This document shows positions 1,097 through 63,759 of a stretch of DNA of 64,000 nt, piece by piece. The stretch spans positions 139,839 to 203,838 of the forward strand of contig JBBADJ010000002.1 in NCBI GenBank assembly GCA_041656495.1, written 5' to 3'. A program made the position numbers and the translations under genes. The DNA comes from Candidatus Ratteibacteria bacterium (GTDB lineage Bacteria > Ratteibacteria > UBA8468 > B48-G9 > DTJG01). Numbering within the stretch: position 1 is the first letter of the stretch; each line of letters opens with the position of its first letter. The notes under the pieces are model-generated. The model was not told the DNA's origin. It ran no database searches and saw nothing but the letters and a program-made list of their open reading frames with translations.

Positions 1097-1115
1097 GACT
1101 TCTCCTATGGGTACT

Positions 1116-8174: not shown

Positions 8175-9400
8175 AAAAATATCGTACCGCAATCACTGGA
8201 ATCGGGGTCATTGCCCCAAATGGTACGGGTATTCACCAATACTGGGAAGCGTTAAAAGCAGGAGAAAGCGGTATTACAAGGATAACTGCATTCAATCCAG
8301 ATCCTTTTCCTTCTCAAATTGCAGGTGAAATAAAAGGATTCCAACCTGATGATTTTATGGATAAAAAAAGCTGTCGGCGTATGTCCCGCACCTCGCAATT
8401 TGCAGTCGCATGCGCCCGCATGGCATTGGATAACGCACAACTTGCTCCACAAGATATTTCAGAAGATCATGGACAGATCATATTAGGAGTTAGCACCAGT
8501 GCCATGGAGTTGATAGAACGCCAACATACTGTGCTTGCCTCCAAAGGTCCTTCCAAAATTCTTCCTTTTGGAATCCTTGCCGCAACTCCACACAGCACCA
8601 CCGGTGAAGTTATTGCGGCACTCGGGTTGAACGTGCCGGCTACCACGCTTGCAACCGGATGTGCCTCGGGTCTTGATGCCATTGGAACAGGATGGAAAAA
8701 AATCTCTACCGGCGAAGCAGAAATTGTTCTTTGCGGTGGTGCTGACGCTCCTATTACTCCACTTATTCTTGCAGGACTCTGCGCAGCCAATATAGTGTCC
8801 CGGCATAACAATCCGCCAGAAGAAGCAAGCCGGCCTTTTGACCTTACCCGAGATGGCGGAGTTCTCGCGGAAGGAGGAGGAATCCTTATTCTTGAAGCTA
8901 TGGACCGCGCTCGTATGCGAGGAGCGCCTATCTATGCAGAATTGGTTGGATACGGACAATATGGAGACGGAAAGGAAAAAAAAACTGGAAACGGTCTCCG
9001 GCACACTATGCGTCAAGCACTCTACACCGCGGGACTTTCAACAGGTGCTATCGGCCATATCTCTGCTCACGCTCCTTCTGATCCTCTTCTTGATTCCGTA
9101 GAAACAGAGGCAATCAAGGAGATCTTTGGACCACGCGCCTATCGTATTCCTCTCACTTCAATCAAATCAATGATTGGGAATCCCTTTGGCTCTATTGGAG
9201 TCTTTCAAACTGCGGCCGCGGCTATGTCCCTACAAGAAGGAGTTATTCCTCCTACCATCAATTATCATCATCCCGACCCTAACTGCGATCTTGATTATAC
9301 TCCGCTCTTCGCGCGCCGTTTCAACGCAGAGTACGCTCTTATCAACTCGCATGGCTTTGGAGGAAGCAATGCAAGTCTTCTTATAAAAAAAGCGCCATGA
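8171..9400 (+). CDS. Beta-ketoacyl-ACP synthase (FabF/KAS II-like condensing enzyme) with variant catalytic triad
   Basis: Full-length thiolase-fold KAS homolog (ITGIGVIAPNG..., active-site Cys in TGCASGLDAIG, first His in SAHAPSDP, C-terminal NSHGFGGSNASLLIKK). The second catalytic His of FabF (…TGHLLGAAG…) reads IGNPFGSIG. Overlaps the upstream gene by ATGA. Confidence 0.85.
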   Translation: MKKYRTAITGIGVIAPNGTGIHQYWEALKAGESGITRITAFNPDPFPSQIAGEIKGFQPDDFMDKKSCRRMSRTSQFAVACARMALDNAQLAPQDISEDHGQIILGVSTSAMELIERQHTVLASKGPSKILPFGILAATPHSTTGEVIAALGLNVPATTLATGCASGLDAIGTGWKKISTGEAEIVLCGGADAPITPLILAGLCAANIVSRHNNPPEEASRPFDLTRDGGVLAEGGGILILEAMDRARMRGAPIYAELVGYGQYGDGKEKKTGNGLRHTMRQALYTAGLSTGAIGHISAHAPSDPLLDSVETEAIKEIFGPRAYRIPLTSIKSMIGNPFGSIGVFQTAAAAMSLQEGVIPPTINYHHPDPNCDLDYTPLFARRFNAEYALINSHGFGGSNASLLIKKAP

Positions 9401-11883: not shown

Positions 11884-13814
11884 ATTATGTGATTGTTTCC
11901 ACAAATGAAAAAGCAATAAGCCATGCAATACGTATTGTATTAAAAGAGAAGTATGTGGTGGAGGAAGTTCCTTACACTCTTCTCTGTGAAACAATCGTGG
12001 CCCGCAGACCAGGGGCTGTCATCTTTGATGCAGACGATCATGGAGAGCTTACTCCTGAACGATTACTATCTCTTTTTTCTATTGATCCCTCCCTTACCGT
12101 TATTCTTTTAGCAGATCGGCTGAATAACACTATGGAAAAAGCCCTTGAAACAGGAGCCTTTGAGATTATTGAAAAACCTTTTCAATCTCTTCGCATTCTC
12201 CATACTGTAAAACGGGCGATTGTGCACGATACCTTCTCCCGGCAGAAGGATTCTCCGCATTCCACACCTTTTTCCGAAACCTCGCTCTCAATAACCTCCC
12301 GCGATACAACAACTTTTTTTGAAGAACTCTCTCAAACAATCGCCTCTTGTATGGATAGCCCGGAACATCTTCTTTCTGAAACATTTCTTCTTCTCCGAAA
12401 ATATCGCCATACAGCAAAAACCGCTTTTTTCCTCCGAAAAAACAGCCAATTTATTCCCATTGCATCTCTTGGAATAGATGACAAATTTCTCTCTGAAATT
12501 CTTGTACCATCTACACACCCTCTCATAGAATGGTTTTCCAGAAAAACCTGTATGGTAGCGGTGGAAAATCCTGACATGAACCCTGCTATCCGTTCCTTGC
12601 TTGAAATGTGCAATGTGCAATGTGCCTTCCCCTGTATCTCCTTTAATGGAACCCTTATTGGATTCCTTCTTACTGGAGGACCTGTCACGGGAAGAGCGTT
12701 GGTAGAGCAGGATATCTCTTTTTTTACAAGTTTCTCTGATTTTTTAACTACCGCCATTGAAAATATAGGGTTACAACAGGAAATTATTGCCCAAAAAAAC
12801 TATCAGGAAGCCATTGTAACCAATGTTCCCAGCGGTATTATCGGAGTAAATGAAGAAGGTAAAATCATTGTATGCAATGAAAGCGCCCATACTATTTTCG
12901 GCATTGACCAATCCGAAGGAATAGGCTCTCCGATAGAACGGCTTGGCGCTCCTGTTGCCGATGTTATCCGTCAAACCCTTGATTCTCAAGAACCTATTGT
13001 ACGGAAGGAACTTCTTCTCTCTCCAGAAAAAATCATTATCGGAATAAGCACCAACCCCATTGTTTCAGAAGGTACACTTCAGGGAGCGGTGGCAATATTT
13101 CAAGATCTCAGCGCTATCAAAGTGTTGGAGGCAAAAGAACGCGAGGTAGAACGCAACGGGTATCTGAACTCTTTAGCATCCCGGCTTTCTCATGAACTGA
13201 AAAATCCCTTAGTCGCTATTAAAACCTTTTCTCAGTTACTTCCTGAAAAATTTGACGATCAGGAATTTCGTACCTCCTTTGCAAAGATTGTACAAGACGA
13301 AATCACAACAATCAATATGATTATAGAAAATATCAGTAAACTTGCGGAGACCCGTTCATTTCATACAAGCGAATTTGATCTTGTTGATTTTTTACATACC
13401 CTCCGCGGCACCTATGAAACAGATAGGCGTACTCCAAATGTTTCGTTTCAAATTGAAAAACAGAGTTCTTTCCCTATTGCCGGAGATCCGCTCCGTATCA
13501 ATGAAGCCATCGGCCATCTTATCTCATTTTTTCAAGAGGAAGAAAACAATGCTTTCGTCACAATCAAGGCAGATACAGAGGACTCTTCCTTCCTTCTTGA
13601 GGTATCTGGAAACTGCCACAAGAACCGGACGAACGACAATCTCCTCTCTTCTTTCGCGCCTGAATTAAAACAGATCGCTTCTATTGGAGTGATTCTTGCT
13701 AAAAAAATATTTGAAGCCCACCACGCTGATTTTTCTGTAACACAGAATCAGAACAAAACCTCTTTTCTTACCCGTATTCCCCGTTCTTCTCATGGCAAAA
13801 ATATTAATCGTTGA
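11880..13814 (+). CDS. Histidine-kinase paralog with N-terminal receiver-like domain, GAF/PAS, HisKA and a degenerate ATP-binding domain (possible pseudokinase or phosphotransfer protein)
   Basis: H-box LSHELKNPLVAIKTF is paralogous to the upstream HK; the C-terminal domain lacks canonical DxGxG and GxGLGL G-boxes (EVSGNCHK; ASIGVILAKKIFEAHH); receiver-like N-terminus lacks the acidic DD pair (VIVSTNE). Confidence 0.7.
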   Translation: MNYVIVSTNEKAISHAIRIVLKEKYVVEEVPYTLLCETIVARRPGAVIFDADDHGELTPERLLSLFSIDPSLTVILLADRLNNTMEKALETGAFEIIEKPFQSLRILHTVKRAIVHDTFSRQKDSPHSTPFSETSLSITSRDTTTFFEELSQTIASCMDSPEHLLSETFLLLRKYRHTAKTAFFLRKNSQFIPIASLGIDDKFLSEILVPSTHPLIEWFSRKTCMVAVENPDMNPAIRSLLEMCNVQCAFPCISFNGTLIGFLLTGGPVTGRALVEQDISFFTSFSDFLTTAIENIGLQQEIIAQKNYQEAIVTNVPSGIIGVNEEGKIIVCNESAHTIFGIDQSEGIGSPIERLGAPVADVIRQTLDSQEPIVRKELLLSPEKIIIGISTNPIVSEGTLQGAVAIFQDLSAIKVLEAKEREVERNGYLNSLASRLSHELKNPLVAIKTFSQLLPEKFDDQEFRTSFAKIVQDEITTINMIIENISKLAETRSFHTSEFDLVDFLHTLRGTYETDRRTPNVSFQIEKQSSFPIAGDPLRINEAIGHLISFFQEEENNAFVTIKADTEDSSFLLEVSGNCHKNRTNDNLLSSFAPELKQIASIGVILAKKIFEAHHADFSVTQNQNKTSFLTRIPRSSHGKNINR

Positions 13815-15153
13815 CGATGAAACAAATGTACGGGAATCTCTAAGATTCGCCTTAAAAGATCAGCATACGATCCGGTTTGCGGATTCAGGAGACAAGGCAT
13901 TGAAAGAGATTGCCTATAATCAGCCAGATCTTGTGATTCTTGATATTATGATGCCTGGAAAAAGTGGAATTGATACGCTTCGTGAAATCAAAAGGGATTA
14001 CGCGCATATCTCGGTAATCATGCTAACTGCCGCTGCCGACCTCTCCACAGCTATCAACGCCATGAAACTCGGCGCCAGCGATTATATTACCAAACCGTAC
14101 GATGTGGAGGAGCTTCTCTTTCAAATAGAAAAGATTATAGAACAAAGAAAACTTCATCAGAAAATCGGGTTGCTTCAAGAAGAAGTTGAAAGAGAATATC
14201 CGGTTGCTTCTTTCATCTTCCAAAGCAAAAAGATGAAGGAAGTTCTTGATATCGCAAAAAAAGCCGCTCCAACGGAAAGCTCCATTATTCTTACTGGACC
14301 CACTGGTGTCGGAAAAGAACTTGTAGCCCGTTTTATCCATACCAATAGCACGCGAGAAAAAGAGCCCTTTATCGCAATACATTGCGCCGCAATTCCAGAT
14401 ACACTCTTTGAAAGCGAACTCTTTGGCTACGAACGAGGCGCCTTTACTAATGCATTCAAAAGAAAACCCGGAAAGATAGAGATGGCCGCAGAAGGAACCA
14501 TCTTTCTTGATGAAGTCAATGAAATTCCTTCTCTTCTACAGGTAAAGCTTCTTCGGTTTCTTCAAGAAAAAAAATTCTCCCGCCTCGGAAGCAATGAACT
14601 TCTTTCAAGTAATGCCCGCATTCTTTCCGCCTCCTCGCAATCCATTACACCGCCCCATAAGACTTTTCGCGAGGATCTTTACTACCGACTTAGCGTGGTG
14701 CCGATAGCAATTCCGTCCCTTACAGAACGGAAAGAAGATATTGTTCCTATCGCAGAATATTATATTGAACAGTTTGCGAAAAAATATAAAAGCCGCGCTA
14801 AAACCCTTTCATTTGAAGCAGAAAAGGCCTTTCTCGCCTATCCATGGCCAGGAAATGTACGAGAATTAAAGAATGTTATTGAACGCTCCCTTGTTCTCCG
14901 TCGCGACGCGGAAAAGATTGACATAGAAACTCTTCCTTCTGAAATTTCTGAAAACTCTCTTCTTCCTTATAAAGAACTCTCTCTTGAAGAAGAGGTCCGT
15001 CAACTTGAAACCACACGGATACTTCATGCGCTTACACAAGAAAAAGGGAATCAGGTAAAGACTGCGAAACGACTCGGAATCACCAGACGAATTCTTCGGT
15101 ATAAGATGGAAAAATTACAGATTGCCTGCGAACAACAAGACCCTAACGCATAA
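13792..15153 (+). CDS. Sigma-54-dependent response regulator (NtrC family: REC, AAA+ sigma-54 activator, Fis-type HTH)
   Basis: REC (KILIVDDE...LDIMMPGKSG), Walker A GPTGVGKE, GAFTGA-like motif reading GAFTNA, arginine finger region, C-terminal HTH (QVKTAKRLGITRRILRYKM). Confidence 0.88.
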   Translation: MAKILIVDDETNVRESLRFALKDQHTIRFADSGDKALKEIAYNQPDLVILDIMMPGKSGIDTLREIKRDYAHISVIMLTAAADLSTAINAMKLGASDYITKPYDVEELLFQIEKIIEQRKLHQKIGLLQEEVEREYPVASFIFQSKKMKEVLDIAKKAAPTESSIILTGPTGVGKELVARFIHTNSTREKEPFIAIHCAAIPDTLFESELFGYERGAFTNAFKRKPGKIEMAAEGTIFLDEVNEIPSLLQVKLLRFLQEKKFSRLGSNELLSSNARILSASSQSITPPHKTFREDLYYRLSVVPIAIPSLTERKEDIVPIAEYYIEQFAKKYKSRAKTLSFEAEKAFLAYPWPGNVRELKNVIERSLVLRRDAEKIDIETLPSEISENSLLPYKELSLEEEVRQLETTRILHALTQEKGNQVKTAKRLGITRRILRYKMEKLQIACEQQDPNA

Positions 15154-15173
15154 GAAAGAATTCTTCTGATTGT

Positions 15174-15197
15174 AGAGAGAGTTCTCTTTTTTTTTCA
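15174..15197 (+). terminator. Weak intrinsic terminator after the sigma-54 response-regulator gene
   Basis: AGAGA-gagt-TCTCT short hairpin followed by T9; also adjacent to the convergent gene's stop. Confidence 0.25.
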
Positions 15198-16595
15198 CCG
15201 CGAAAGATCGGCAAAGAGTTTCTTAACTCCCTCTATTACTATCCCTTCTGCCCGTTCGTCTACCACACATCCCAAATAGGACGTTTCATAACTGGCATCA
15301 ATACCAATCGCCTCATCAAGCGGAGTGGCATGAAACTCTTCTTCCCGAACAGAAAGGTTGAATGTCCTCTCCTTAAAAGCTTTTGCCGTAGGAATATATC
15401 CAAGGACCGCATTGCAATTTTCTACGATCATTGTCTCCTCAAAAGAGCTATCTTCCCGAAACGCAAAACCTGTTTCTGTAAAGATCTCGCCAGAGGTACA
15501 GAGAAATGCGCACTTTTTATCAAGACCTACCAGAAACAAAGAGTGTTCAAGGGGACTCTTCTCTTCCATCTGCATAAAAAGCGCCTTCGCGACAAGTGCC
15601 CGCAATGTTCCCGGAAATGCCTCTATATTGATTTTGGCAGATTCAATTTCTTTATCAGTAAAAGTTCTACGAGGAATTGAAAGTGTCTTCTCCGCAAGAA
15701 AGAGAGAATTTACCGGCGAAAGGGTCTGCAAAGAAGTAAGAATACCGGAAGCGCTCCGGCCTAATGCCTCAGCTATCTTTTCACCAATATCTGAAGAACG
15801 GGTTTCACTATCAAAAGGATCCAAGAACGCAATATCTCCGCAAGCATCGTTAAAGAGTATTACAGGAACTCCATACTCTTCTGAAAGAAGGTCTCGGGTC
15901 ATTGAAGGCCAATCACCTGAAATTTCTGTACCGCCCAAAGTATCTGGATGATTGCCATAATTCAACGCGATCGCCTTTAGAAAACCTGTATCATCGGCGA
16001 TTTTTAAGAGGCTGAGTTTGGAAGAGACCGGACCCGCGGGACCAATAATTTCTTGGGGTTGCGTGGGATTTGTTACCACCCTCCCATCTCGCAAACGATA
16101 CCGTCTGTTGAATGAAAATCCATCCACATCAACAGAACCACACCCTATCGTTGCCGGAAACCTACTATCATACGCTTCCCTCATCGCATCAACAATCTGC
16201 GTTCTAAGGTATCCGGGATACTCGTCGGAAATCGTAAAGTTTTCTGTGTAAACCGCCTTATAAGAATGATCGGGAAGTGGACCGGTATGGGTATGGGTCG
16301 CATGAAGTGTAATATGAAGAGAGGAGGAAGGGATCTTTTTTCGGGCAATCTGTTTCACATCGCGCCAAAGGCATTCGCCGGCCCAGATCAAGTCTAACGC
16401 CACTATAAATGCTGTGGTGGTTCCATCATCAAAACAGAGTGCGATCGCCTTCAAATCATCGCGTATCCCAGAAGCAGGTCTTGGAGAAAAATAACCCACC
16501 AAAGAAGAACCTAAAGGAGGAGTGATAATCCGTTCAGCAATACCTATCCGTACCATTTGATAACTCCCGTATAAGAGAGAAAAGCGCTTCTTCAA
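15195..16595 (-). CDS. Neutral/alkaline ceramidase N-terminal-domain-like hydrolase (uncharacterized)
   Basis: N-terminal pattern RIGIAERIITPPLGSSLVGY...GIRDDLKAIALCFDDG...IVALDL resembles the conserved N-terminal block of non-lysosomal ceramidase-family proteins (GxA..DITPP.G..L.GY...G..D.L.A.AL..DDG...V..DL); assigned from memory of the family, not searched. Confidence 0.4.
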   Translation of the reverse strand: MKKRFSLLYGSYQMVRIGIAERIITPPLGSSLVGYFSPRPASGIRDDLKAIALCFDDGTTTAFIVALDLIWAGECLWRDVKQIARKKIPSSSLHITLHATHTHTGPLPDHSYKAVYTENFTISDEYPGYLRTQIVDAMREAYDSRFPATIGCGSVDVDGFSFNRRYRLRDGRVVTNPTQPQEIIGPAGPVSSKLSLLKIADDTGFLKAIALNYGNHPDTLGGTEISGDWPSMTRDLLSEEYGVPVILFNDACGDIAFLDPFDSETRSSDIGEKIAEALGRSASGILTSLQTLSPVNSLFLAEKTLSIPRRTFTDKEIESAKINIEAFPGTLRALVAKALFMQMEEKSPLEHSLFLVGLDKKCAFLCTSGEIFTETGFAFREDSSFEETMIVENCNAVLGYIPTAKAFKERTFNLSVREEEFHATPLDEAIGIDASYETSYLGCVVDERAEGIVIEGVKKLFADLSR

Positions 16596-17613
16596 TCAAA
16601 TCCTCAGAATACGATCCCTTCACTCTTCCTTTACAGAATAGAAGCCATTCTCCAACTCCTCCCGCAATCCCGACATCTGCTTCTTTTGCCTCTCCGGGTC
16701 CGTTTACACTGCAACCCATAACCGCAATCTTCAATGTATTTATTTTAGGAAAAATCCGCGCTTCTTTCTGCAAACGTTTTTCTACCCCTTTCCTTACCTT
16801 CATAAGATTTACCCGACAACGGCCGCAGGTAGGGCAAGAAATGAGTTCTGGTTCAAACCTTCGCAACCCGAGCGACTGTAGCGTTGCTCGGGTCCACCTG
16901 ACCTCCTCCTCCGGACTTTCTGTAAGAGAAATCCGAACAGTATCTCCAATACCTTCCGAAAGAAGAATCCCGAGTCCCAACACACTTTTTGTTACTCCGG
17001 CATACCCTGCTCCGGCTTCAGTAATGCCTATATGAAAAGGATATTCGCACTGAGGAGCAAGGGCTCTATAAACTGCAACCGTATCATCCACCGAAGGAGT
17101 TTTCATTGAAATCACAAGATCAAAACAGTCCTGATCCTCGCAAAATCTAATGCTATCCTTCGCAAAGGAAAGCATATCCCGAACTAAGTGAGAACTCTTT
17201 CTCGGAAGAGAGCCTGAATTAAATCCAAGCCGTACCGGAATCTTCTCTTCTTTGGCTTTCTGGAGAACTTTTATAAGATTGCTTCTTTTCATATTTCCCG
17301 GATTCACACGGATTTTGTCAAAGCCCGCCTGAACCGCAAGAACTCCAAGACGCCAGTCATAATGGATATCCGCACATCCAGGAAGACCTGAAGCATGTAT
17401 GGCACGAATCGCGGGAGAAATATCATTACGAGAAAGAATGGAAGTTCGGATTAGTTCTGCTCCCGCAGAGGCCAAACGCGCGCATGCCCGCTTTATAACA
17501 GGATAATCCGAGCTCGCCACCTTTGTCATAGATTGTACAGAAACCCGCGCGTCTCCTCCTATCTTTAGAGATCCCGCCATAACCATCCGAGTTTTTCGTT
17601 TCTTTATTTTCAT
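16534..17613 (-). CDS. ispG: 4-hydroxy-3-methylbut-2-enyl diphosphate synthase IspG (GcpE)
   Basis: SLKIGGDARVSVQSMT N-terminus; C-terminal Fe-S cluster motif CPTCGRC...GCSVNGPGE. Confidence 0.92.
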   Translation of the reverse strand: MKIKKRKTRMVMAGSLKIGGDARVSVQSMTKVASSDYPVIKRACARLASAGAELIRTSILSRNDISPAIRAIHASGLPGCADIHYDWRLGVLAVQAGFDKIRVNPGNMKRSNLIKVLQKAKEEKIPVRLGFNSGSLPRKSSHLVRDMLSFAKDSIRFCEDQDCFDLVISMKTPSVDDTVAVYRALAPQCEYPFHIGITEAGAGYAGVTKSVLGLGILLSEGIGDTVRISLTESPEEEVRWTRATLQSLGLRRFEPELISCPTCGRCRVNLMKVRKGVEKRLQKEARIFPKINTLKIAVMGCSVNGPGEAKEADVGIAGGVGEWLLFCKGRVKGSYSEDLIEEALFSLIRELSNGTDRYC

Positions 17614-18677
17614 CGCCGTAGCTTCTCTTCTATAATCTTGAAAATATCGTTATAGGTTACATAAAGCGCAAGCGCGATAATCAAAAATGCGCCCGCTGTA
17701 TTTACTATTTCAAGGAATCGCCGGCTAGGTTTTTTCCTCCGAAGCTTCTCAAAGAAAAGACCGACAAGATGGCCCCCATCAAGGACAAAAAAGGGCATAA
17801 GATTCAAAACCCCGAGATTCACATTCAAAAAAGCAATAAAATAGAGATAACGAGAAATGCCGAGTTTCATTACCTCCATAGAAAATTTTGCGATACCAAT
17901 AGGACCCGCAAGCTGTTTAATAGAGGCCTTTCCGGTAATCAGATACTTGAAGGCAATAAAGACTCCCTTAATCATTTTTCCAGTCTCTTTTCCGCTTTCA
18001 AGAAAAGAACGGAAAAAACCGTACCTGGCGATCTTTTCCTTGGGTTCTATGCCGATAAGATACCTCTTATATCCGTCAAAAACCTTCACTCCATCCTCTT
18101 GAAGGTGTGGAAGAACAGAAAATCGGAGAGGAGTTCCTTCGCGAGAAACTTCAATCTGAAGAGGAGTATCCGGATGACGGTTTGACTCAACTGTAATACG
18201 TTGCAAAACATCAAACCATTCTCTTGTCCGTTTTCCATTCACAGAAAGAATCTCGTCGCCAACCACTATTCCCGCACTCTTTGCAGGAAGTTGTTCTACC
18301 ACTCCTCCCACACGCGTACCATCATAAGCCGGCACTCCAAGCATAAGGGCCGGAAGAAGAAAAACCCATGCCACCACAATATTATGGATCCCTCCCGCAA
18401 CAACCACTAATGCCCGAATTCCCGGTGGTTTCGCGGCAAACTCGTCGGGCGCTTCGGCATTTACACTGTCCTGTCCCGCCAGTTTCACATAACCGCCAAA
18501 AAGAATCGGACAGATCCAATATTCGGTCTCTCCGCGTTTCCATGAAATAAGTTTAGGGCCCATCCCGAAAGAGAAGCGTTCCACCCTGATCCCTACCCGT
18601 TTTGCAACCCAGAAATGTCCTAATTCATGAAAAAAAATGGCTATTCCGAATACAATCAATACCCCAAGCAATCCCAT
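17610..18677 (-). CDS. rseP: RIP metalloprotease RseP (M50 site-2 protease with PDZ domain)
   Basis: HELGHF zinc motif in TM1, PDZ region, LDGG motif near C-terminus. Confidence 0.9.
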   Translation of the reverse strand: MGLLGVLIVFGIAIFFHELGHFWVAKRVGIRVERFSFGMGPKLISWKRGETEYWICPILFGGYVKLAGQDSVNAEAPDEFAAKPPGIRALVVVAGGIHNIVVAWVFLLPALMLGVPAYDGTRVGGVVEQLPAKSAGIVVGDEILSVNGKRTREWFDVLQRITVESNRHPDTPLQIEVSREGTPLRFSVLPHLQEDGVKVFDGYKRYLIGIEPKEKIARYGFFRSFLESGKETGKMIKGVFIAFKYLITGKASIKQLAGPIGIAKFSMEVMKLGISRYLYFIAFLNVNLGVLNLMPFFVLDGGHLVGLFFEKLRRKKPSRRFLEIVNTAGAFLIIALALYVTYNDIFKIIEEKLRR

Positions 18678-19805
18678 TTATCCTCCCAGCAAAAACCGTA
18701 CTGATTCCCTTGCCTTCGCATCTGCTTCCATCACATCTTCCACAGAAGTAATATGGCCGGGAATATGACGTTCAAGGGCTTTTTCAATTAAGACCGGTAT
18801 ATGTGAAAATGTAATTTTGTTTTCAAGAAAAAGCGTAACAGCAACTTCATTGGCGGCATTGAGAACCGTGGGAAACGACATCCCTTTTTCAAGAGCTTGA
18901 CGCGCAATATGAGGAGAAGGAAACCGTTCTGTATCCACAGGAGAAAAGGTAAGGGAACGAGATCTCTGAAAATCTAAAGGAAGAAGTCCATCGCAAGATG
19001 CCGCGCGAAGAGGCCAAGAAAGACAGTATGCAAGGGAATATTTCATATCGGGCAGAGAAAAAACCCCATGCATAAATCCATCTGAAAAAAAGACCATACC
19101 ATGTACAAGCGCCTGAGGATGAAGAAGAATGTCTATCTTCTCTGAAGAAAGATCAAACAGGTACGCGGCTTCTATCATCTCAATCCCTTTATTCATCAAT
19201 GTAGCGGAATCTACCGTGATTTTTTTTCCCATCTTCCATACAGGATGATCTAAAACCTGCTCTATGGTTACAGAATCCATATTTCCGGTATAATTGTAAA
19301 GAGCGCCACCAGAAGCGGTAATTGTAATGCGTTCCGCGGAAGTTCGTTCTCTAGCGAGAATCTGAAAGATTGCATTGTGTTCACTGTCTGCAGGAAGAAT
19401 TTGTGCACGCCACGGAAGCAAAAGAGGCCAGGCAGAGATAATAATTTCCTTAGTGGCCATGACCACAATTTTACCCTCGGAGAGCGCACGAAGTGTTGCG
19501 GAAAGTCCCGTAAGACCCGGAATCGCCATCACCACCACATCCGGATTACTCTCCTCCACCACCTTTTCTAAAGCATCAGAACCTGAAAAAAAACGCGTTT
19601 GAGAAAATTCTCTTTCTAAAGATTCATCATTTACAGGAAGCGCCGCGCATAAAGGAGAAAACTCTCTTATCTGTTCCCCAAAACCTTGATATCGGTATCC
19701 TGCCGCAAGCCCGCATACAGTAAATTCCGATGCCATCATACGGACCACCTCAAGCGTAGTACAGCCAATACTTCCCGTAGACCCAAATATCGCCACCTTC
19801 TTCAT
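18678..19805 (-). CDS. dxr: 1-deoxy-D-xylulose 5-phosphate reductoisomerase
   Basis: MKKVAIFGSTGSIGCTTLEVV NADPH-binding N-terminus and full-length Dxr similarity. Confidence 0.92.
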   Translation of the reverse strand: MKKVAIFGSTGSIGCTTLEVVRMMASEFTVCGLAAGYRYQGFGEQIREFSPLCAALPVNDESLEREFSQTRFFSGSDALEKVVEESNPDVVVMAIPGLTGLSATLRALSEGKIVVMATKEIIISAWPLLLPWRAQILPADSEHNAIFQILARERTSAERITITASGGALYNYTGNMDSVTIEQVLDHPVWKMGKKITVDSATLMNKGIEMIEAAYLFDLSSEKIDILLHPQALVHGMVFFSDGFMHGVFSLPDMKYSLAYCLSWPLRAASCDGLLPLDFQRSRSLTFSPVDTERFPSPHIARQALEKGMSFPTVLNAANEVAVTLFLENKITFSHIPVLIEKALERHIPGHITSVEDVMEADAKARESVRFLLGG

Positions 19806-20479
19806 CCCAACCCTCCGAACCGTCTCTTCCTTCGGCTATACTCTCTACAAGCCTCTTCAAGAGAGTTCTCGTTAAAATCAGGCCATAAAACTTTGGTAAA
19901 ATAGAACTCCGCATAAGCAGAATGCCACAGAAGAAAGTTGCTGATACGTTCTTCTCCCGCAGTCCTTATAATTAAATCTACTTCAGGAAGATCCGGCATA
20001 TACATATAATCTTCTAACCGAAAATCTTCGCGGGGATTCTTCGCCATAAGGTTTCGTATGGCATCAAGGATCTCCTTTCTACCACCATAGTTAATTGCAA
20101 AAACAAGAGTAATACCCTTATTCTCCGCGGTCCTCTCAACAATAGCGCTGGCAGTCTTTTGAAAGCGTTCGGGAATACCTTCGCGGCTTCCCAAAATACG
20201 TACTCGCACCTGTTCCCTCTGAAGATGCTCTTCTTCCTTCACAAGAGCCTCCTCCATCAGGGAAAAAAGAAATCTTACCTCGGCAAGAGGTCGTTTCCAA
20301 TTCTCTGTTGAAAAGGAATAGAGTGTAAGCCACTGAATTCCAAGGTCTTTTGCTTTCGTAAGAACCTTTTTAACCGCACCAATACCTTGCTTGTGCCCCT
20401 CAAACCTTGGCAGGCCTTTGGCGACTGCCCAACGGCCATTTCCATCCATAATAATTCCCACATGTGCTGGTCCGTTCAC
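19802..20479 (-). CDS. uppS: Undecaprenyl diphosphate synthase (cis-prenyltransferase)
   Basis: HVGIIMDGNGRWA signature, 225 aa. Confidence 0.92.
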   Translation of the reverse strand: MNGPAHVGIIMDGNGRWAVAKGLPRFEGHKQGIGAVKKVLTKAKDLGIQWLTLYSFSTENWKRPLAEVRFLFSLMEEALVKEEEHLQREQVRVRILGSREGIPERFQKTASAIVERTAENKGITLVFAINYGGRKEILDAIRNLMAKNPREDFRLEDYMYMPDLPEVDLIIRTAGEERISNFLLWHSAYAEFYFTKVLWPDFNENSLEEACREYSRRKRRFGGLG

Positions 20480-21189
20480 AATGTAAAATCCTCCCCGAAA
20501 TAGACCTGTCTTCCCTCTCTATTTTTCAATAATTCTTCCGGAGAACCCTGCGCTATAATCGTTCCCCGATAGATAAGGTATGCCCGATCCATAATACTCA
20601 AAGCATCGCGAACATTATGGTCGGTAATAAGAACTCCGGCTCCACGGTCCCTTAACTGACGGACCATCTTCTTGATCTCCGAGACTGTCTTCGGATCAAT
20701 CCCTGAAAACGGTTCGTCAAGAAGGAAATATTTTGGATTGTTGATAAGGCCCCTCGCAATTTCAAGGCGTCGTTTTTCGCCTCCGGAAAGATGAGCCGCC
20801 ATCGTATTTTGAAGCTCTAAAAGTCCCATTGTTTCAAGAAGAGCAAGAGCGGTTCTTTCCTGTTCCGTAGGAGAAGGAAAAAAACTTTCAAGAATAATAA
20901 GAAGATTTTCAAGTACGGAAAGACGGAGAAAAAGAGCGGGTTCTTGAAATAGATAGCTTACTCCCATACGTGCCCTCATATAAACAGGAAGACGGGTAAG
21001 ATCTTTTCCATTCACTCGCACCATACCCTGATCCGGAGAAACAAAACCCATAAGAATATTAAAACTGGTCGTTTTTCCTGCGCCATTAGGTCCAAGAAGT
21101 CCCACTACCTCGCCGGGTTCAAGAGAAAGGGAGAGATCTTCAACCACCCTCCTTCCGCCAAAGGTCTTTGCAATATGCACCGCTTCAAG
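20476..21189 (-). CDS. lptB: LPS export ABC transporter ATP-binding protein LptB
   Basis: Near-colinear match to LptB ([30 protein letters not shown] ... [13 protein letters not shown] ... YFGEDFTL); start trimmed to MLEAVH, abutting the ruvB stop. Confidence 0.85.
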
Positions 21190-22225
21190 CATTGGTGAAA
21201 AGGCCCTCTGACCCGGGTGTAATCTTAAGGTGTTCATATGCAAGACGTGTGGCGATCCTTCCCTGCGGCGTTTTATCAAGGAACCCTTCCTGCACAAGAT
21301 AGGATTCATAGACCTCTTCAATAGTATCGGATTCTTCTCCCACCGCGATAGAAAGACTTTTTAACCCCACAGGACCTCCATTAAACTTAAGAATAATGGT
21401 TTCCAATATCCGTTTATCCATTTCATCAAGACCACACGAATCAACCGACATCTTATCCAACGCAAAACAGGCAATCTCTTTGGTAATGGTTCCTTCTCCC
21501 TTAACCAGCGCATAATCGCGTACTCTACGAAGTAAACGGTTTGCTATTCTCGGCGTAGCACGAGAACGCCGCGCAATTTCAAGCGCTCCGTCATCATTCG
21601 TTACCACACCAAGAATTCCCGCGGAACGAAGAATAATGGAAGAGAGTTCTTCTACGCTGTAATAATCTAGTCTGCTCACAATACCAAACCTGTTTCTTAA
21701 TGGAGAAGTAAGCAAACCTATACGTGTTGTCGCACCAATAAGGGTAAATGGCTTCAGGGGAATTTTCAAAGATTTTGCTTTGGGTCCCTCTCCCAACATA
21801 ATATCTATTGAATAATCTTCCATTGCACTGTACAGATATTCTTCTACCTGACGCGGAAGACGATGAATTTCATCAATAAAGAGAATATCGCCCTTTTCAA
21901 GATTGGTAAGCATCCCGGCAAGATCCCTTCCCTTTTCAATGACCGGACCCGAACTTGATCGGATATTAACCTCTAAAGCATGAGAAATAATATAGGCAAG
22001 CGTTGTTTTTCCAAGACCCGGCGGACCATATAACAAAACATGGTCTAACACGTCCTTTCTCATTTTTGCGGATTCAATAAAAATAGAGAATGTCTCTTTT
22101 AATCGGTCCTGTCCCACAAACTCCTCAAAACTTCCAGGCCTAAGGGTGTTTTCAAAGACAATTTCATCCGGACCTAATAACGATGAACTAACCTCTTCAT
22201 TCTCAATAATCTGATCTTCTTCCAT
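21185..22225 (-). CDS. ruvB: Holliday junction branch migration helicase RuvB
   Basis: AAA+ Walker [10 protein letters not shown], RuvB sensor and winged-helix regions. Confidence 0.95.
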
Positions 22226-26706: not shown

Positions 26707-26830
26707 TGCCCCTGGCAACACCTACTCTCCCGTTCACTCTCGTAAACAGTACCATCGGCGCTGGAGGGCTTAACGACCGTGTTCGGGATGGGAACGGGTG
26801 TGGCCCCTCCGCCATGATTGCCAGAGGCAA
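26707..26830 (-). rRNA. rrf: 5S ribosomal RNA
   Basis: The reverse complement contains the conserved 5S loop and helix blocks CCCGTTCCCATCCCGAACACGG…GTTAAGCCC…AGCGCCGATGGTACTG…GGGAGAGTAGGT, and closes a 12-bp helix I between its 5' UGCCUCUGGCAA and 3' UUGCCAGGGGCA ends. About 123 nt. No 16S or 23S gene is adjacent. Confidence 0.9.
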
Positions 26831-57811: not shown

Positions 57812-59521
57812 ATGCCGACAAAACGAGAAATTACAACGATTATCCAAAATATGGGGCTCTGGGACAAGAGAACTCTTGACAGAGCGCTTGAAGATCTTGA
57901 AAGTTCCGGTCGCCCGCTAAAAGAGATATTTCAAAGTATGGGCCTTCTTCCTATCGGCGAAATATCTCCCACCCTCTTCTTCCAACTCGGCATTGTTCAA
58001 CAAGAGCTTCCTGCACGAGAAATACCCAAAAACGTTCTCACTACTATTTCTTCTTCCTTTGTAAAAAAACATCGGATCATTCCATGGGAAATCCGAGAAG
58101 ATGGAAAACTTATTGTCGCTTCTGACGATCCCCTTAATATTCTTGCAACAGATTACTTCAAAAAAGCAGTAGACTGGGAGAGCGAAATAGAGGTATTTAT
58201 CACCTTCCCAAATGAAATAGATCAACTTCTTGAAAAATATTATGAACAGCAAGATATAGAGGACCTCTCATCCCTTCTTCAGGAAGCGGGAAGCTCTTCT
58301 GTGGAGGCCGTTGAAGAAGAGGAAGAAATTATTTCCGATGAAGATGAAGAGGCGCTTGCGCTTCAAGCGCCTGTAGTAAAGATCGTCAATCTTATCTTTG
58401 TAGAAGCTCTTCGCCGACGGGCAAGCGATATCCATCTTGAACCTCTTGAAAAACGCTTTCGGGTCCGATTCCGCATTGACGGAGTCCTCTACGAAGTCGT
58501 AAGTCCTCCTAAACGCATTGAACGAGCAACCATTGCCCGTATCAAACTAATGGCAAAGATGAATCTTGCGGAAAAACGAGTCCCGCAAGACGGCCGCATT
58601 AACTTAGATCTTAGCGGCAGACCTATTGACTTCCGCGTTTCCGCACTTCCCGGAGTTTATGGCGAAAGCGTTGTCATGAGAATCCTTGATAAAACCACCA
58701 GTCTTAAAGACCTTGAACAACTCGGATTTGTAGGAAACGATTTAGTAGTATGGGAAACTCTGATGAAATATTCAGGAGGAATTGTTCTGGTAACAGGACC
58801 GACCGGAAGCGGGAAAACTACTACCCTGTACGCCTCTCTGAAAAAACTCAATACCATTGATAAAAAATTAATGACGGTTGAAGAACCAGTAGAGTATCAG
58901 ATCGCGGGGATCAACCAGACCCCGGTTCTTTCAGAGATAGGACGTACCTTCTCCGCTATTCTCAGAGCATTCCTTCGCCAATCACCCGATATTATTCTTG
59001 TAGGAGAAATACGAGACGTTGAAACCGCAGATATCGCTCTTCGCGCCGCCCTTACCGGACACCTTGTCTTCTCAACACTCCATACCAATGACGCGCCAAG
59101 CGCAATTACCCGTCTTATTGACCTCGGCATTCCGCCATTTTTGGTGGCATCCGCTGTACAAGGCGTTATGGCACAGCGGCTTGTGCGGGTTCTCTGCAAA
59201 TACTGCAAGGAACCTTATCAACCCACACCAGAAGAGGAACGCATTTTAGACAGAAAAGAGGGAGAACCCTATGAACTCTTCCAGCCCAAAGGATGCGCGG
59301 AATGCAACTTTACCGGCTTCAGCGGACGACTCGGTGTCTTTGAGATCTTTCAGATGACTGACAAAATGCGAGAACTGACTCTCCAACGGGTTTCTGCCAG
59401 CGAACTACGAAAAGCCGCGATTCAACATGGAATGAAATCCATGCGAGACGACGGTATCGCAAAAACAAAACAAGGTATTACAACCCTTCAAGAAATCTTT
59501 GATGTAGCAGGAGAAGAGTAA
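57812..59521 (+). CDS. pilB: Type IV pilus / T2SS assembly ATPase (GspE/PilB family)
   Basis: T2SSE_N domain, acidic linker, Walker A GPTGSGKTT, Asp and His boxes, tetracysteine zinc motif (CKYC…CAEC). Confidence 0.88.
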   Translation: MPTKREITTIIQNMGLWDKRTLDRALEDLESSGRPLKEIFQSMGLLPIGEISPTLFFQLGIVQQELPAREIPKNVLTTISSSFVKKHRIIPWEIREDGKLIVASDDPLNILATDYFKKAVDWESEIEVFITFPNEIDQLLEKYYEQQDIEDLSSLLQEAGSSSVEAVEEEEEIISDEDEEALALQAPVVKIVNLIFVEALRRRASDIHLEPLEKRFRVRFRIDGVLYEVVSPPKRIERATIARIKLMAKMNLAEKRVPQDGRINLDLSGRPIDFRVSALPGVYGESVVMRILDKTTSLKDLEQLGFVGNDLVVWETLMKYSGGIVLVTGPTGSGKTTTLYASLKKLNTIDKKLMTVEEPVEYQIAGINQTPVLSEIGRTFSAILRAFLRQSPDIILVGEIRDVETADIALRAALTGHLVFSTLHTNDAPSAITRLIDLGIPPFLVASAVQGVMAQRLVRVLCKYCKEPYQPTPEEERILDRKEGEPYELFQPKGCAECNFTGFSGRLGVFEIFQMTDKMRELTLQRVSASELRKAAIQHGMKSMRDDGIAKTKQGITTLQEIFDVAGEE

Positions 59522-60696
59522 TGGCAAAACGGATTGAAGAACTCTTAGAAACCATTGTGCGAGAAGATGCCGCAGACCTCCATATCAACGTGGGACTTCC
59601 GCCAATTATGCGCGCCCATGGCGGATTAATGAAGATGGATAAGGAAGATCTCACGCCTGACGACACTGTTGCTTATATGAAAGCCATCACCTCACGGGAA
59701 CATCAGGAAGAAATTCAACGCGTGGGAGGAACCGATTTCGGCTTTGCCTTCAGAGATCTTGCACGATTCAGAGTAAGTGTCTTCAAAGAACGGGGCAACC
59801 TTGCAATGGCGCTCCGGCTTATTCCTCATCGGTTTCTCACCTTTGAACAGATAGGACTTGACCCAAAAACAATGAGGTATCTTCTTACTCGTCCCCGGGG
59901 ACTCATTCTTGTTACCGGACCGACCGGAAGCGGGAAAACAACTACCCTCGCCTCCATGATAGATTATATCAATTCCCACATGGAACGACATATCATTACC
60001 GTAGAAGATCCTATTGAATATTTCCATTCCCATAAACGCTCCATTATAACCCAAAGAGAGCTCGGCGTAGACGTACCGACCTTTCCGGAAGCATTGCGCC
60101 GCGGTTTGCGCCAAGATCCCGATGTATTTCTGGTGGGAGAACTTCGCGACCTTGAAACCATTGAAGCGGCTATTACCGCGGCTGAAACAGGACACCTTGT
60201 CTTTGGAACACTCCATACCACGGGAGCCACACGGACTATTGACCGAATCGTCAATGTCTTTCCCGTCGCTCAGCAAGAACAGATCCGGGTAATGCTTTCT
60301 GTCTCTATCCTCGGCATCCTCTCGCAGATTCTTCTAAAAAGAAGAGATAAACCTGGACGGGTTGCAGGATTTGAACTTCTGATAGCGACGCCATCTGTAC
60401 AGAACCTTATCCGGGAAAGAAAGACCTACCGGCTTCTCTCTGATATTCAAACAGGAATGAAATGGGGAATGGTTGCCCTTGACGCCCACCTGATGAACTC
60501 ATTCAAACAGGGGAAAATTTCCTTTGAAGATCTTATGGTCTATAGCTATGACCCCGAACAGGTCAGACTCCAATTAGTAGCAGAAGGAGTCATTGACGAA
60601 GCGCTCGCCGCCACTGCTGGAAAACAGGACGGTATTACCGACGTAGTTCTTGACGACGAACAAAATAACGCCCCACCCGCGATTTCCAATGGCTGA
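59521..60696 (+). CDS. pilT: Twitching-motility retraction ATPase PilT (with about 45-aa C-terminal extension)
   Basis: PilT-specific N-terminus (LHINVGLPPIMRAHG), Walker A GPTGSGKTT, no zinc motif; 391 aa. Confidence 0.88.
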   Translation: MAKRIEELLETIVREDAADLHINVGLPPIMRAHGGLMKMDKEDLTPDDTVAYMKAITSREHQEEIQRVGGTDFGFAFRDLARFRVSVFKERGNLAMALRLIPHRFLTFEQIGLDPKTMRYLLTRPRGLILVTGPTGSGKTTTLASMIDYINSHMERHIITVEDPIEYFHSHKRSIITQRELGVDVPTFPEALRRGLRQDPDVFLVGELRDLETIEAAITAAETGHLVFGTLHTTGATRTIDRIVNVFPVAQQEQIRVMLSVSILGILSQILLKRRDKPGRVAGFELLIATPSVQNLIRERKTYRLLSDIQTGMKWGMVALDAHLMNSFKQGKISFEDLMVYSYDPEQVRLQLVAEGVIDEALAATAGKQDGITDVVLDDEQNNAPPAISNG

Positions 60697-62413
60697 AAAA
60701 AAACTTCTCGGACAACTTCTTATTGAGTTGGGAATGATTACCGAACAAGACCTGGAATCTGCATTGAAACAGCAGATTAAAGCAAAAAAATTTCTTGGTC
60801 GTATTCTTGTGGAACAGGGATTCTTAGAAGAAAAAGAATTAAAGAAAGCCCTTAGTATTCAAGCGGGAATTGAAATTATTGATCTAAAGATGATCAATGT
60901 GGATAAGCGCGCGGTAGAATCTTTTCCTTCTGCCCTTGCCAAAAGTTACAATGTCCTTCCTATCGCCTTAGAAAGAAATATCATCACCATCGCAGTAGGA
61001 GATACGCTGAGCCTCAACATTCAAGACGACGTATCATTTATTCTTGGATTCAAGGTAAAGATGGTCATGGCGGACGAGGATGAAATCAAGGAACTTATCA
61101 ACGTTCATTACGGCTCTGAACTTGAAACCATAGACGACCTTATCAAATGGCTTTCACAGGATATTGCCGAAATGGACGAGTTGGAAACACTCGCATCCTC
61201 CCGCGGAGAGTATGCCACTATCACCAGTCTTGAAGAGATCGCGTCCCTTCCTCCTGTCATCAAACTCTTTGACCTTATCCTTCTTCAAACAGTCCGGGAC
61301 AATGCCTCCGACGTACATCTTGAACCCTTTGAAAATGATTTTCGTGTACGGTACCGCGTAGATGGCGTACTCTACGATATGGTGCACCCACCCAAAGGTC
61401 TTTCCTTTGCCCTTTTCTGCAGGTTCAAAATCATGGCAGGAATGGATATCGCAGAACGGCGCCTTCCTCAAGACGGACGTATTGAACTCTCTGTTATGGG
61501 ACGACCCGTGGATCTACGAGTCTCCACAGTTCCCACTGTCTTTGGAGAATGTCTTGCGGTCCGTGTTCTTGACCGCGGAAAAACCATCTTTGACCTTGAC
61601 GCCCTTGGACTCCTTGAAGAAGATAAAGAACAACTTGAACGCTTCATCAAAAAACCTCATGGAATTATCCTTGCCACAGGACCGACAGGATGCGGAAAAA
61701 CCACAACACTGTATGCCCTGATAAGAAAAGTCAATACTCCGGAAGTAAAGGTTATTACCACAGAAGATCCTGTTGAATATATGCTTGATGGAGCCATCCA
61801 AGTTGCGGTAAAAGAATCTATCGGCCTTACTTTTGCCTCCTGCATCCGGAGTATTCTTCGTCAAGACCCTGATATTATTCTTGTAGGAGAGATTCGCGAT
61901 TTTGAAACCAGCCAAATGGCAATACAATCCGCACTTACCGGACACCTTGTATTAAGCAGTCTTCATACCAACGACGCTCCTACCACCATTATGAGAATGG
62001 TAGATATGAAGGTAGAACCCTTTTTGCTTTCTTCAACCATTGAAGGCGTTATCGCACAACGATTGGTACGGATTCTCTGCCCGCGTTGCCGGGAAGAGTA
62101 CCGGCCTTCAAAACAGGAGATTCTTGAACTAAACCTCTCTGAAGAAAGAGCGAAAGATATGCTTTTTTACAAACCAAAAGGCTGTCCCTTCTGCCGGGCC
62201 GGATATAAAGGAAGAACCCCTATCTTTGAGGTTCTCGTTCCCACTGAAAAATTCTGGAACGCAGTCTTTGAAAACCGTCCGCTCGGAGAAATACGGGAAA
62301 TCGCAGTAAACGATTGCGGTATGAGAACCTTAGTAGAAGATGGATACAAGAAGATTCATCTTGGAATAACCTCCATTGAAGAGGTCGCCAAAGAAGTACA
62401 TGGTTACGGATAG
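60689..62413 (+). CDS. Second PilB/GspE-family ATPase with N-terminal MshEN-type (c-di-GMP-binding) domain, MshE-like
   Basis: Two tandem 24-aa motifs separated by a 5-aa spacer (LLGQLLIELGMITEQDLESALKQQ - IKAKK - FLGRILVEQGFLEEKELKKALSIQ), then T2SSE_N, Walker A GPTGCGKTT, Zn motif CPRC…CPFC. Confidence 0.85.
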   Translation: MAEKKLLGQLLIELGMITEQDLESALKQQIKAKKFLGRILVEQGFLEEKELKKALSIQAGIEIIDLKMINVDKRAVESFPSALAKSYNVLPIALERNIITIAVGDTLSLNIQDDVSFILGFKVKMVMADEDEIKELINVHYGSELETIDDLIKWLSQDIAEMDELETLASSRGEYATITSLEEIASLPPVIKLFDLILLQTVRDNASDVHLEPFENDFRVRYRVDGVLYDMVHPPKGLSFALFCRFKIMAGMDIAERRLPQDGRIELSVMGRPVDLRVSTVPTVFGECLAVRVLDRGKTIFDLDALGLLEEDKEQLERFIKKPHGIILATGPTGCGKTTTLYALIRKVNTPEVKVITTEDPVEYMLDGAIQVAVKESIGLTFASCIRSILRQDPDIILVGEIRDFETSQMAIQSALTGHLVLSSLHTNDAPTTIMRMVDMKVEPFLLSSTIEGVIAQRLVRILCPRCREEYRPSKQEILELNLSEERAKDMLFYKPKGCPFCRAGYKGRTPIFEVLVPTEKFWNAVFENRPLGEIREIAVNDCGMRTLVEDGYKKIHLGITSIEEVAKEVHGYG

Positions 62414-62460: not shown

Positions 62461-63759
62461 ATGGCAACATTTCAATACAATGCACTTGATGCCGGAGGGA
62501 AAACAGTTACCGGAACCCTCGAAGCAGGAAGCGTGCCTGAGGCAATCACAAAGTTAAAGGGAATGGGATACTTTGTGACCAGTGTAGGTCAGGCAAGAGG
62601 CGGGAAAAAAGCTTCCGGAGAAAAACCAGGAGAAAAAGCAAAACCCGCCGCACAAAAAAAGAAAAAAGCAGGGGGCGGAGGTGGACTTTCTTTCTCATTC
62701 GGCGCCGCCAAGATCAAGCCAAAAGAGATGACCATCATTACCCGTCAGCTTGCTACCCTCATCGGCTCAGGTCTTCCTCTGTTACGCGCCCTTAAGGTTC
62801 TTGAACAACAAAGAAAAGGCGCGGCGGCAACCGTGCTTGCCAGAGTTTCCCAAGAAATAGAACAGGGTGCGCTCTTTTCTGAGGCGCTTGCAAAATTTTC
62901 AGGAAGTTTTCCTCGTATCTATATAGCCATGGTTCGCGCGGGAGAAGCCGGCGGCGCCCTTGAAACTGTTTTAAGCCGACTCGCTACCTTTATGGAAAAC
63001 GAGGCAAAATTAAAAGCGAAAATTAAATCCGCAATGGCATACCCGGTACTTGTTATCTGTGCAGCAGTCGGTATTCTTCTATTCATTATGCTCAAAATCG
63101 TTCCTACCTTTGCAAAGATCTTTGAAGATATGGAAGCAGGAGAGCTTCCCGGCCCTACCCTTCTGTTAATGAAGATCTCCAATCTTCTTCTTACCAAGTT
63201 CTATCTTATTATTATCGCGGTTGTGGTACTTGTTATCGCCTATAAAATTGCCGTAAAAATCAAAACAACTCGGTACCTCATTGACGCACTGAAACTAAAA
63301 ATATTCCTCTTTGGTCCGGTTATCTTAAAAACCATTATCGCGCGCTTTTCCAGAACCTTTGCAACCCTCATCACCAGTGGTGTTCCTATCCTCCAATCTC
63401 TACAAATTGTACGGGACACCGTAGGAAACGATGTCTTTGCTAAAGCCTTGAACGAGGTTCGCAACAGAGTCAGGGAAGGAGAAGGCCTCTCTGGAGTTAT
63501 GCTTCGCACAAGTGTATTCCCTCCCATGGTTACCAATATGATCGCTGTCGGCGAAGAAACCGGCGCTATGGACGCTATGTTAGAAAAAGTCGCTGATGCT
63601 TACGATGCAGAGGTAGATGCCGCGGTCTCGGCGATGACCTCCATGATTGAACCTATCCTTATTATCGGTCTAGGCGGCATTGTCGGATTTATTGTTATCT
63701 CTCTCTTTATGCCGCTTATCAAACTCGCAATGAGTCTTTCAGGAGGTGAAGGAGGCTGA
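62461..63759 (+). CDS. pilC: Type IV pilus / T2SS platform protein PilC/GspF with lysine/glycine-rich N-terminal insert
   Basis: Two T2SSF repeats, three TM segments; low-complexity insert [29 protein letters not shown] after the first about 45 aa. Confidence 0.88.

Follow-up and report, generated by a model that had tools for sequence, protein, structure and literature searches.

The gene at positions 60689 to 62413 (+) of the Candidatus Ratteibacteria DNA analyzed here (64,000 nucleotides of contig JBBADJ010000002.1, hereafter the window, to whose numbering all positions refer unless otherwise indicated) encodes a 574-residue hexameric secretion ATPase of the PilB/GspE family, with an MshEN-type domain at its N terminus and a T2SSE ATPase domain at its C terminus. 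[quoted passage not shown] A paralogous ATPase from the same gene cassette, ATPase 1, carries a degenerate, yet conserved, counterpart of the motif on which the proposal is built.

The ORF (open reading frame) called mechanically for ATPase 2 runs from a TTG codon (60650-62413, +). The likely start is not this TTG but the ATG at position 60689, because the latter agrees with the N termini of orthologues and with the public 574-residue gene call; read from this ATG, the gene shares 8 nt with the end of the preceding pilT gene, stop codon included (ATGGCTGA). A protein of 100% identity occurs in a Candidatus Ratteibacteria metagenome-assembled genome, where it is annotated simply as "ATPase, T2SS/T4P/T4SS family." Translation from the ATG gives the N terminus MAEKK-LLGQLLIELGMITEQDLESALKQQ-IKAKK-FLGRILVEQGFLEEKELKKALSIQ, in which motif I (residues 6-29; 60704-60775, +) and motif II (residues 35-58; 60791-60862, +) are separated by the spacer IKAKK (residues 30-34; 60776-60790, +; 15 nt). 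These are exactly the coordinates, 60704 to 60862 overall, at which a first-pass annotation of the window, made from the letters alone, had placed two 24-residue repeats and their spacer. When a relaxed single-motif pattern was run against the six-frame translation of the whole window, it matched just the two ATPase 2 sites, compared to a chance expectation of 0.01 matches per shuffle; the tandem motif is therefore not a chance occurrence. The MshEN-type domain continues with a C-terminal alpha/beta subdomain (residues 60-146; 60866-61126, +; Pfam PF05157) that includes the residue D105 (61001-61003).

That ATPase 2 belongs to the PilB/GspE family is evident from the Pfam T2SSE domain, which spans residues 187-567 (E = 9.5e-127), and from an intact catalytic core comprising Walker A (331-339), the Asp box (359-363), Walker B (393-404), the His box (418-426), and a Cys4 motif (464-502). 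The NCBIfam models for PilB and GspE scored the protein at 568.9 and 567.1 bits, below their equivalog cutoffs of 675.65 and 630.25 bits, respectively.

The published MshEN consensus has 24 positions, RLGxx(L/V/I)(L/V/I)xxG(L/V/I)(L/V/I)xxxxLxxxLxxQ, and occurs twice around a 5-residue spacer, for 53 residues in all (Wang et al. 2016, PMC5013675); the version quoted in the first-pass annotation had 23 positions and needs correction. Both motifs of ATPase 2 fit the consensus at positions 2, 3, 6, 7, 10, 12, 17, 21, and 24. The position-3 Gly is present in both (G8 and G37), as are the turn Gly at position 10 (G15 and G44) and the position-24 Gln (Q29 and Q58), and the Leu triad positions 2, 17, and 21 are all filled (L7, L22, L26, L36, L51, and L55). 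At position 11, motif II has F, and motif I has M, which is a conservative change. Where the original consensus begins with Arg, at position 1, motif I has L6 and motif II has F35; L6 is outside the original consensus but inside an extended one that admits R, K, or L at this position.

The NCBIfam model NF053729 ("c-di-GMP_motif"), a 53-position hidden Markov model (HMM) of the tandem motif with a cutoff of 38 bits, matched the N-terminal fragment of ATPase 2 at 57.4 bits (E = 9e-16, residues 7-58) and the full-length protein at 52.6 bits, so that the alignment to a motif HMM that the first-pass annotation had suggested as a check came out above the cutoff. A phmmer search of PDB sequences with a 66-residue ATPase 2 query returned MshE of Vibrio cholerae (5HTL, E = 5e-7) and the GSPII-B domain of Thermus thermophilus PilF (E = 2e-7). 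The AlphaFold2 model of residues 1-150, built with 59 aligned sequences, has a predicted local distance difference test (pLDDT) score of 85.6 and places helices at residues 7-13, 19-32, 36-42, and 48-58, followed by the alpha/beta subdomain. With Foldseek, the best matches of this model were to c-di-GMP-bound MshE 5HTL (E = 1.9e-12, template modeling [TM] score 0.71-0.75), with the PilF GSPII-B complexes 8PDK/8PE0/8PFA also among the top matches; the N terminus of ATPase 2 is thus predicted to take the MshEN fold. In PilF, D266 hydrogen-bonds a guanine amino group and is oriented by R268, the MshE equivalent of D266 being D108 (PMC11731258). D105 of ATPase 2, which is at least 90% conserved, aligns with PilF D266, and L107 is the counterpart of R268. 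Pfam PF05157, named "MshEN," was rejected as a test of the tandem motif because it spans residues 60-146 alone, i.e., the C-subdomain, and matches both ATPases equally.

The strict tandem pattern was found in 75 of the 120 best ATPase 2 homologues, with a spacer of 5 residues in all 75. Column by column, in an alignment of 59 homologues, L11, L36, G37, and Q58 are invariant (100%), and conservation reaches 98% for G8, 98% for L22, 97% for L26, and 97% for Q29 in motif I and 95% for L40 and 98% for L55 in motif II, while the Leu triad positions 2, 17, and 21 are hydrophobic in 98-100% of the sequences. Fourteen columns in residues 1-60 reach a conservation of 90% or more, and ten of them fall within the motif positions (hypergeometric p = 0.001); the ligand-contacting Gly, Leu, and Gln are the most conserved columns of the ATPase 2 N terminus. 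The turn Gly is conserved less (G15, 80%; G44, 73%). A lack of conservation at the second Gly and the terminal Gln, which the first-pass annotation had named as what would speak against the motif, is ruled out by these figures, the terminal Gln being retained in 97% and 100% of the homologues and the turn Gly in 80% and 73%. Position 1 of motif I is mostly L among the homologues with the tandem pattern, and that of motif II is F or L; across the 59 aligned homologues, 98% have F or L at the latter (F, 64%; L, 34%). Altogether, the motif described by the first-pass annotation stands on its profile score of 57.4 bits, its conserved ligand positions, and its predicted fold, and the adjective "textbook" was slightly overstated because position 1 holds L6 and F35 instead of Arg. 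A separate observation is that a subclade at ~60% identity (loci L026-L029, proteins P0065-P0088) has Asn/His in place of the turn Gly in both motifs (ERNL, DLHF) and retains the LG and Q positions.

The position-1 evidence that we found comes from studies of PilF alone, and it covers the native residues K167 and L196 and the engineered K167L and K167R; no experiment with Phe there was found. Native GSPII-B, with K167 and L196 at position 1 of its motifs, binds c-di-GMP with a dissociation constant (Kd) of 6 nM; the K167L mutant has a Kd of 2 nM, and putting Arg back at position 1 makes binding 4- to 25-fold weaker (PMC11731258). The same authors widen position 1 to (R/K/L) and suggest that a hydrophobic residue there predicts very high affinity. 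For the other ligand positions, it has been reported that the backbone amide of the position-3 Gly of MshEN contacts guanine N7/O6, that the substitutions G11L and G40I abolish binding, and that Ala in place of this Gly costs 10- to 30-fold in binding. In PilF, c-di-GMP binding is weaker with Q190E and is lost when Q190E is combined with Q218E.

For ATPase 2, we infer the binding itself, how tight it is, and how, and in which direction, it acts on the motor, as follows. By homology to MshE and PilF GSPII-B, one c-di-GMP molecule would lie across the four-helix bundle, with one guanine per 24-residue motif. The backbone amides of G8/Q9 and G37/R38 would contact the Hoogsteen edges of the guanines. 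Each guanine would have the Leu triads L22/L26/L36 and L7/L51/L55 stacked on one of its faces and, in place of the MshE Arg, L6 and F35 stacked on the other. Q29 and Q58 would hold the ribose-phosphate, and D105 may contribute a contact from the C-subdomain. The hydrophobic position 1 in both motifs would predict tight binding, and occupancy of the site would be expected to favor pilus extension over PilT-driven retraction. In V. cholerae, c-di-GMP-bound MshE promotes extension, and low c-di-GMP favors PilT-dependent retraction (PMC7096442).

ATPase 1 (57812-59521, +) is a paralogous PilB/GspE-family ATPase of 569 residues that is 38% identical to ATPase 2. It aligns to ATPase 2 from residue 1 and without gaps over the first 60 residues, and for this reason it has the same 24+5+24 scaffold, with EITTIIQNMGLWDKRTLDRALEDL / ESSGR / PLKEIFQSMGLLPIGEISPTLFFQ (57827-57985, +) standing opposite ATPase 2 residues 6-58. 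Its key positions are changed to E6, T8, and L29 in unit I and to P35 and K37 in unit II; T8 and K37 stand at the essential Gly sites and L29 at the Gln site, where orthologues of the window's ATPase 1 have Q. NF053729 scored ATPase 1 at 13.8 bits, under the cutoff of 38. The statement of the first-pass annotation that the first ATPase is without the motif therefore holds for the ligand-contacting residues, which are gone, but not for the scaffold, which is present; a description as "motif absent" was rejected in favor of a colinear, degenerate, yet conserved counterpart. Residues 1-60 (57812-57991) have an identity of 0.84 to the consensus of 22 orthologues, next to 0.83 for the ATPase 2 counterpart, and residues 61-150 lie below this at 0.60. 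The consensus of this N-subdomain, MPTKxExIxII...GLWD...ALEEQ...PLxExFQ..GMLPFGE.SPSFYFQ, is aromatic-rich, and on the sequence, the subdomain looks like a functional variant, not decay.

[quoted passage not shown] In the AlphaFold2 model of ATPase 1, helix alpha-1 starts from residue 4, after a conserved T3-x-x-E6 that fits the capping-box rule (T/S/D at Ncap, E/Q/D at N3), and by analogy this early helix recalls the capped, extended alpha-1 of GSPII-A. We propose that ATPase 1 keeps the fold and has probably lost the canonical c-di-GMP site. The first-pass annotation had gone further and predicted this ATPase to be c-di-GMP-independent, which does not follow from motif loss, because the PilB proteins of Xanthomonas and Pseudomonas are without the motif and come under c-di-GMP control via PilZ-FimX bound to the N-terminal domain (PMC8389850). 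It had also taken both ATPases for extension motors of one pilus; this is a step beyond the profile evidence, in which neither protein reaches the PilB or the GspE equivalog cutoff (ATPase 1: GspE, 596.4 bits against 630.25; PilB, 574.8 bits against 675.65).

A gene for c-di-GMP turnover is present in the window at positions 1116-2519 (-), encoding a REC-HD-GYP response regulator of 467 residues (Pfam Response_reg at 4-113, HD_5 at 285-450; DUF3369). Its motifs are intact (HD, residue 331; HHEQLDGTGYP, residues 384-394), and this intact sequence supports the view that the organism degrades, or turns over, c-di-GMP. The search for c-di-GMP genes used Pfam on ~45 window ORFs, motif patterns, and phmmer over the window and 51 loci; the phmmer probes were GGDEF, EAL, and PilZ sequences, and the GGDEF probe picked up the unrelated loci L042 and L043. 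With these means, EAL and PilZ genes did not turn up in the window or around the orthologous cassettes of the clade, the HD-GYP gene being the sole find, and an Rfam scan gave no c-di-GMP riboswitch in the window or the 10 kb downstream. The HD-GYP gene and mreB share a strand, the former 19 nt upstream of the latter, with mreC next (window positions 71-2519, -; L052, L053), which suggests possible cotranscription of the phosphodiesterase gene with these cell-shape genes; extension of the contig leftward beyond mreB added mreC alone, the contigs being short. The gene rpoN (2643-3881) is divergent from the HD-GYP gene. The first-pass annotation had joined this regulator with ATPase 2 into a c-di-GMP-gated extension motor: its identification as a REC-HD-GYP protein with intact motifs is borne out, but the tie to the pilus motor is circumstantial, because the pilus genes are 58 kb away, the gene is co-oriented with mreB/mreC, and no GGDEF, EAL, or PilZ gene and no c-di-GMP riboswitch turned up in the window. 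Locus L043, from an Acidobacteria genome, has a GGDEF ORF (6884-7897, -) directly upstream of an ATPase 2 homologue with KLG.../RLG... motifs; this is a direct genomic linkage of a cyclase to an MshEN ATPase, a linkage absent in the present window.

Several observations weigh against c-di-GMP binding by ATPase 2 or against its regulatory use. Motif II opens with F35, a hydrophobic, aromatic residue that neither published consensus sequence includes, and K33, at spacer position 4, stands where 88% of homologues have Gly (xKTGx). The search for GGDEF genes came up empty in the 64-kb window, the 10 kb downstream, and the flanks of 29 orthologous cassettes of the Ratteibacteria clade. In addition, a consensus motif is by itself not enough for binding, since PilF GSPII-A with all six deviating residues restored to consensus still shows no c-di-GMP binding (Neissner et al. 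2025, PMC12002112), a failure attributed to inter-subdomain contacts and the capped helix. This last result, together with the deviations F35 and the Gly-less spacer, would suit a role of the ATPase 2 N-domain as a protein docking module, as has been proposed for GSPII-A. We regard such a role as distinctly improbable, since G8, G37, Q29, Q58, and the Leu triads, the very residues that contact ligand, are the most conserved columns, whereas a bare scaffold would need no such conservation, and ATPase 1 keeps the fold with other residues. By sequence, one of the features that block GSPII-A is also missing from ATPase 2, which is without the Ncap motif: only M-A-E-K-K precede its tandem motif, and with M1 at the Ncap position, K4 at N3, and five residues only, no capping box is possible. 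Its helix alpha-1 begins at residue 7 in the model, and by Foldseek the model is nearer to ligand-bound MshE (E = 1.9e-12) than to GSPII-A (E = 4.7e-9).

Granting a nucleotide site, its occupant and its use may differ from those we propose. MshEN does bind 3'3'-cyclic GMP-AMP (cGAMP), weakly (Kd of 0.33 mM), and no GGDEF gene showed up in the window, so a site that takes this or another cyclic dinucleotide in vivo could be imagined. Such a substitution appears highly improbable given that both half-sites of ATPase 2 are guanine-type and symmetric, that MshEN has an affinity for cGAMP ~600-fold below that for c-di-GMP, and that the scanned ORFs showed no CD-NTase or DncV-like gene. A different concern is that the site could be occupied by c-di-GMP always, in which case the nucleotide would have a structural role, as a cofactor or as one component of a composite surface for docking, in place of that of a switch, and "gating" would be the wrong word for it. 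L6 and F35 resemble PilF GSPII-B and its K167L mutant, with Kd values of 6 and 2 nM, and the PilF authors raise this same possibility for PilF (PMC11731258); affinity in the nanomolar range counts among the points against regulated binding. Permanent occupancy nevertheless seems unlikely to us: PilF whose affinity is weakened to ~500 nM already shows altered twitching and adhesion, indicating that affinity matters physiologically, and the HD-GYP gene suggests regulated c-di-GMP levels. We retain c-di-GMP binding by the N terminus of ATPase 2 as the preferred, if provisional, interpretation.

The four genes of the cassette are closely packed and follow one another in the order ATPase 1-pilT-ATPase 2-pilC, with overlaps of 1 nt between ATPase 1 and pilT and 8 nt between pilT and ATPase 2. 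The second gene encodes a PilT-family retraction ATPase (59521-60696, +; 391 residues) that scored 435.8 bits against TIGR01420 pilT_fam (cutoff, 319.1), and the fourth encodes a PilC/GspF platform protein (62461-63759, +; 432 residues) with Pfam T2SSF twice, for which NCBIfam GspF and PilC are both under cutoff; the pilC start is preceded by AAGGAG. This four-gene order recurs in ~30 Ratteibacteria and Omnitrophota-labelled genomes, and it is found in Planctomycetota at 41-45% identity (orthologous cassettes of loci L001-L035, L030-L033, and L041). The ATPase 1 orthologue of the planctomycete cassettes still carries KLG.../RLG... motifs, so motif loss in ATPase 1 is specific to the Ratteibacteria clade. 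The planctomycete ATPase 2 orthologue reads PLGRVLIKMG... and has a variable spacer. We tentatively suggest, as a possibility that we rate well below even, that the cassette is an old arrangement and that, within Ratteibacteria, sensory tasks have been divided between its two extension-type ATPases, the N-subdomain of ATPase 1 having become a new ligand or partner module, so that one platform protein would be driven by two differently addressed motors. ATPase 1 and ATPase 2 may both serve the same pilus, or one may serve a pilus and the other a pseudopilus.

The 10 kb downstream of pilC (positions 11338-21299 of locus L049) hold five prepilin-type (N_methyl) genes, genes for 599- and 790-residue unknown proteins, an AI-2E-family transporter, and a SurA-like peptidyl-prolyl isomerase (PPIase) containing the Rotamase_2 domain; neither a secretin gene nor PilMNO genes turned up in these 10 kb. 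This region resembles a T2SS-like locus with a Rotamase_2 PPIase that lies upstream of the giant genes of Omnitrophota (bioRxiv 10.1101/2023.11.21.568195). Elsewhere in the window, a dense two-component cluster (9397-15153, +, and 3916-5148, -) comprises a 7TM-PAS (seven-transmembrane) histidine kinase, a second PAS-HisKA protein without an HATPase_c match, a sigma-54-dependent response regulator, and, near rpoN, a REC-HisKA-HATPase hybrid kinase. An orphan 5S rRNA gene lies at 26710-26825 (-; 99.5 bits), and no 23S rRNA, 16S rRNA, or tRNA gene was detected in the 64 kb.

Ratteibacteria is a candidate phylum placed with the Planctomycetota-Verrucomicrobiota-Chlamydiota (PVC) group, and a literature search on c-di-GMP or pili in Ratteibacteria returned nothing specific and no c-di-GMP receptor. 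ATPase 2 is a concrete candidate for a c-di-GMP receptor in a little-studied phylum. MshEN motifs are known from >10,000 proteins of many lineages, typically on PilB/GspE ATPases; the present arrangement is ordinary and widespread and leaves the current understanding of these domains unchanged. The ATPase 2 family contributes naturally occurring MshEN motifs whose position 1 holds Leu or Phe instead of Arg, and the paired ATPases of one cassette offer a natural contrast for the role of the N-terminal domain in motor choice.

Of the systems characterized to date, V. cholerae MshEN (5HTL) shares with ATPase 2 the two 24-residue motifs, the 5-residue spacer, and their location at the extreme N terminus of a PilB-type ATPase. 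The two are identical at positions 2, 3, 6, 10, 17, 21, and 24 of both motifs, and the predicted model of ATPase 2 has the same two-subdomain fold (TM score, 0.71-0.75) with an Asp, D105, equivalent to D108. They differ in position 1 (Arg in MshEN, Leu/Phe in ATPase 2) and in the spacer (KNTGR versus IKAKK), and identity over the domain is ~32%. T. thermophilus PilF GSPII-B (8PDK, 8PE0) recognizes c-di-GMP without Arg, by hydrophobic stacking at position 1, and the likeness extends to sequence: the LLGxxL... start of motif I in ATPase 2 is that of the PilF K167L mutant, and xLGRILV in motif II is that of the native L196-LGRILV. PilF has three tandem GSPII domains where ATPase 2 has one, its motif II is one residue shorter, position 1 of that motif is Leu instead of Phe, and its R268, which preorients D266, is replaced by L107 in ATPase 2.

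The N-terminal domain of Xanthomonas citri PilB, PilF GSPII-A, and ATPase 1 appear to form a second group, with an MshEN-like fold from which the c-di-GMP residues have been lost. Unlike X. citri with its PilZ-FimX, the window yielded no PilZ or FimX homologue, and the ATPase 1 variant (GLWD, PLKEIFQ, GMLPFGE, and FYFQ) has its own conserved sequence, unlike that of X. citri PilB or GSPII-A. With regard to the pairing of motors, Clostridium perfringens, like the organism of this window, has two assembly ATPases, PilB1 and PilB2, and, as cited in PMC6958937, its PilB2 binds c-di-GMP and controls pilin polymerization with the cognate PilC2. In that Gram-positive bacterium, the ATPases belong to separate pilus loci, whereas here the genes for both flank one pilT and share one pilC.

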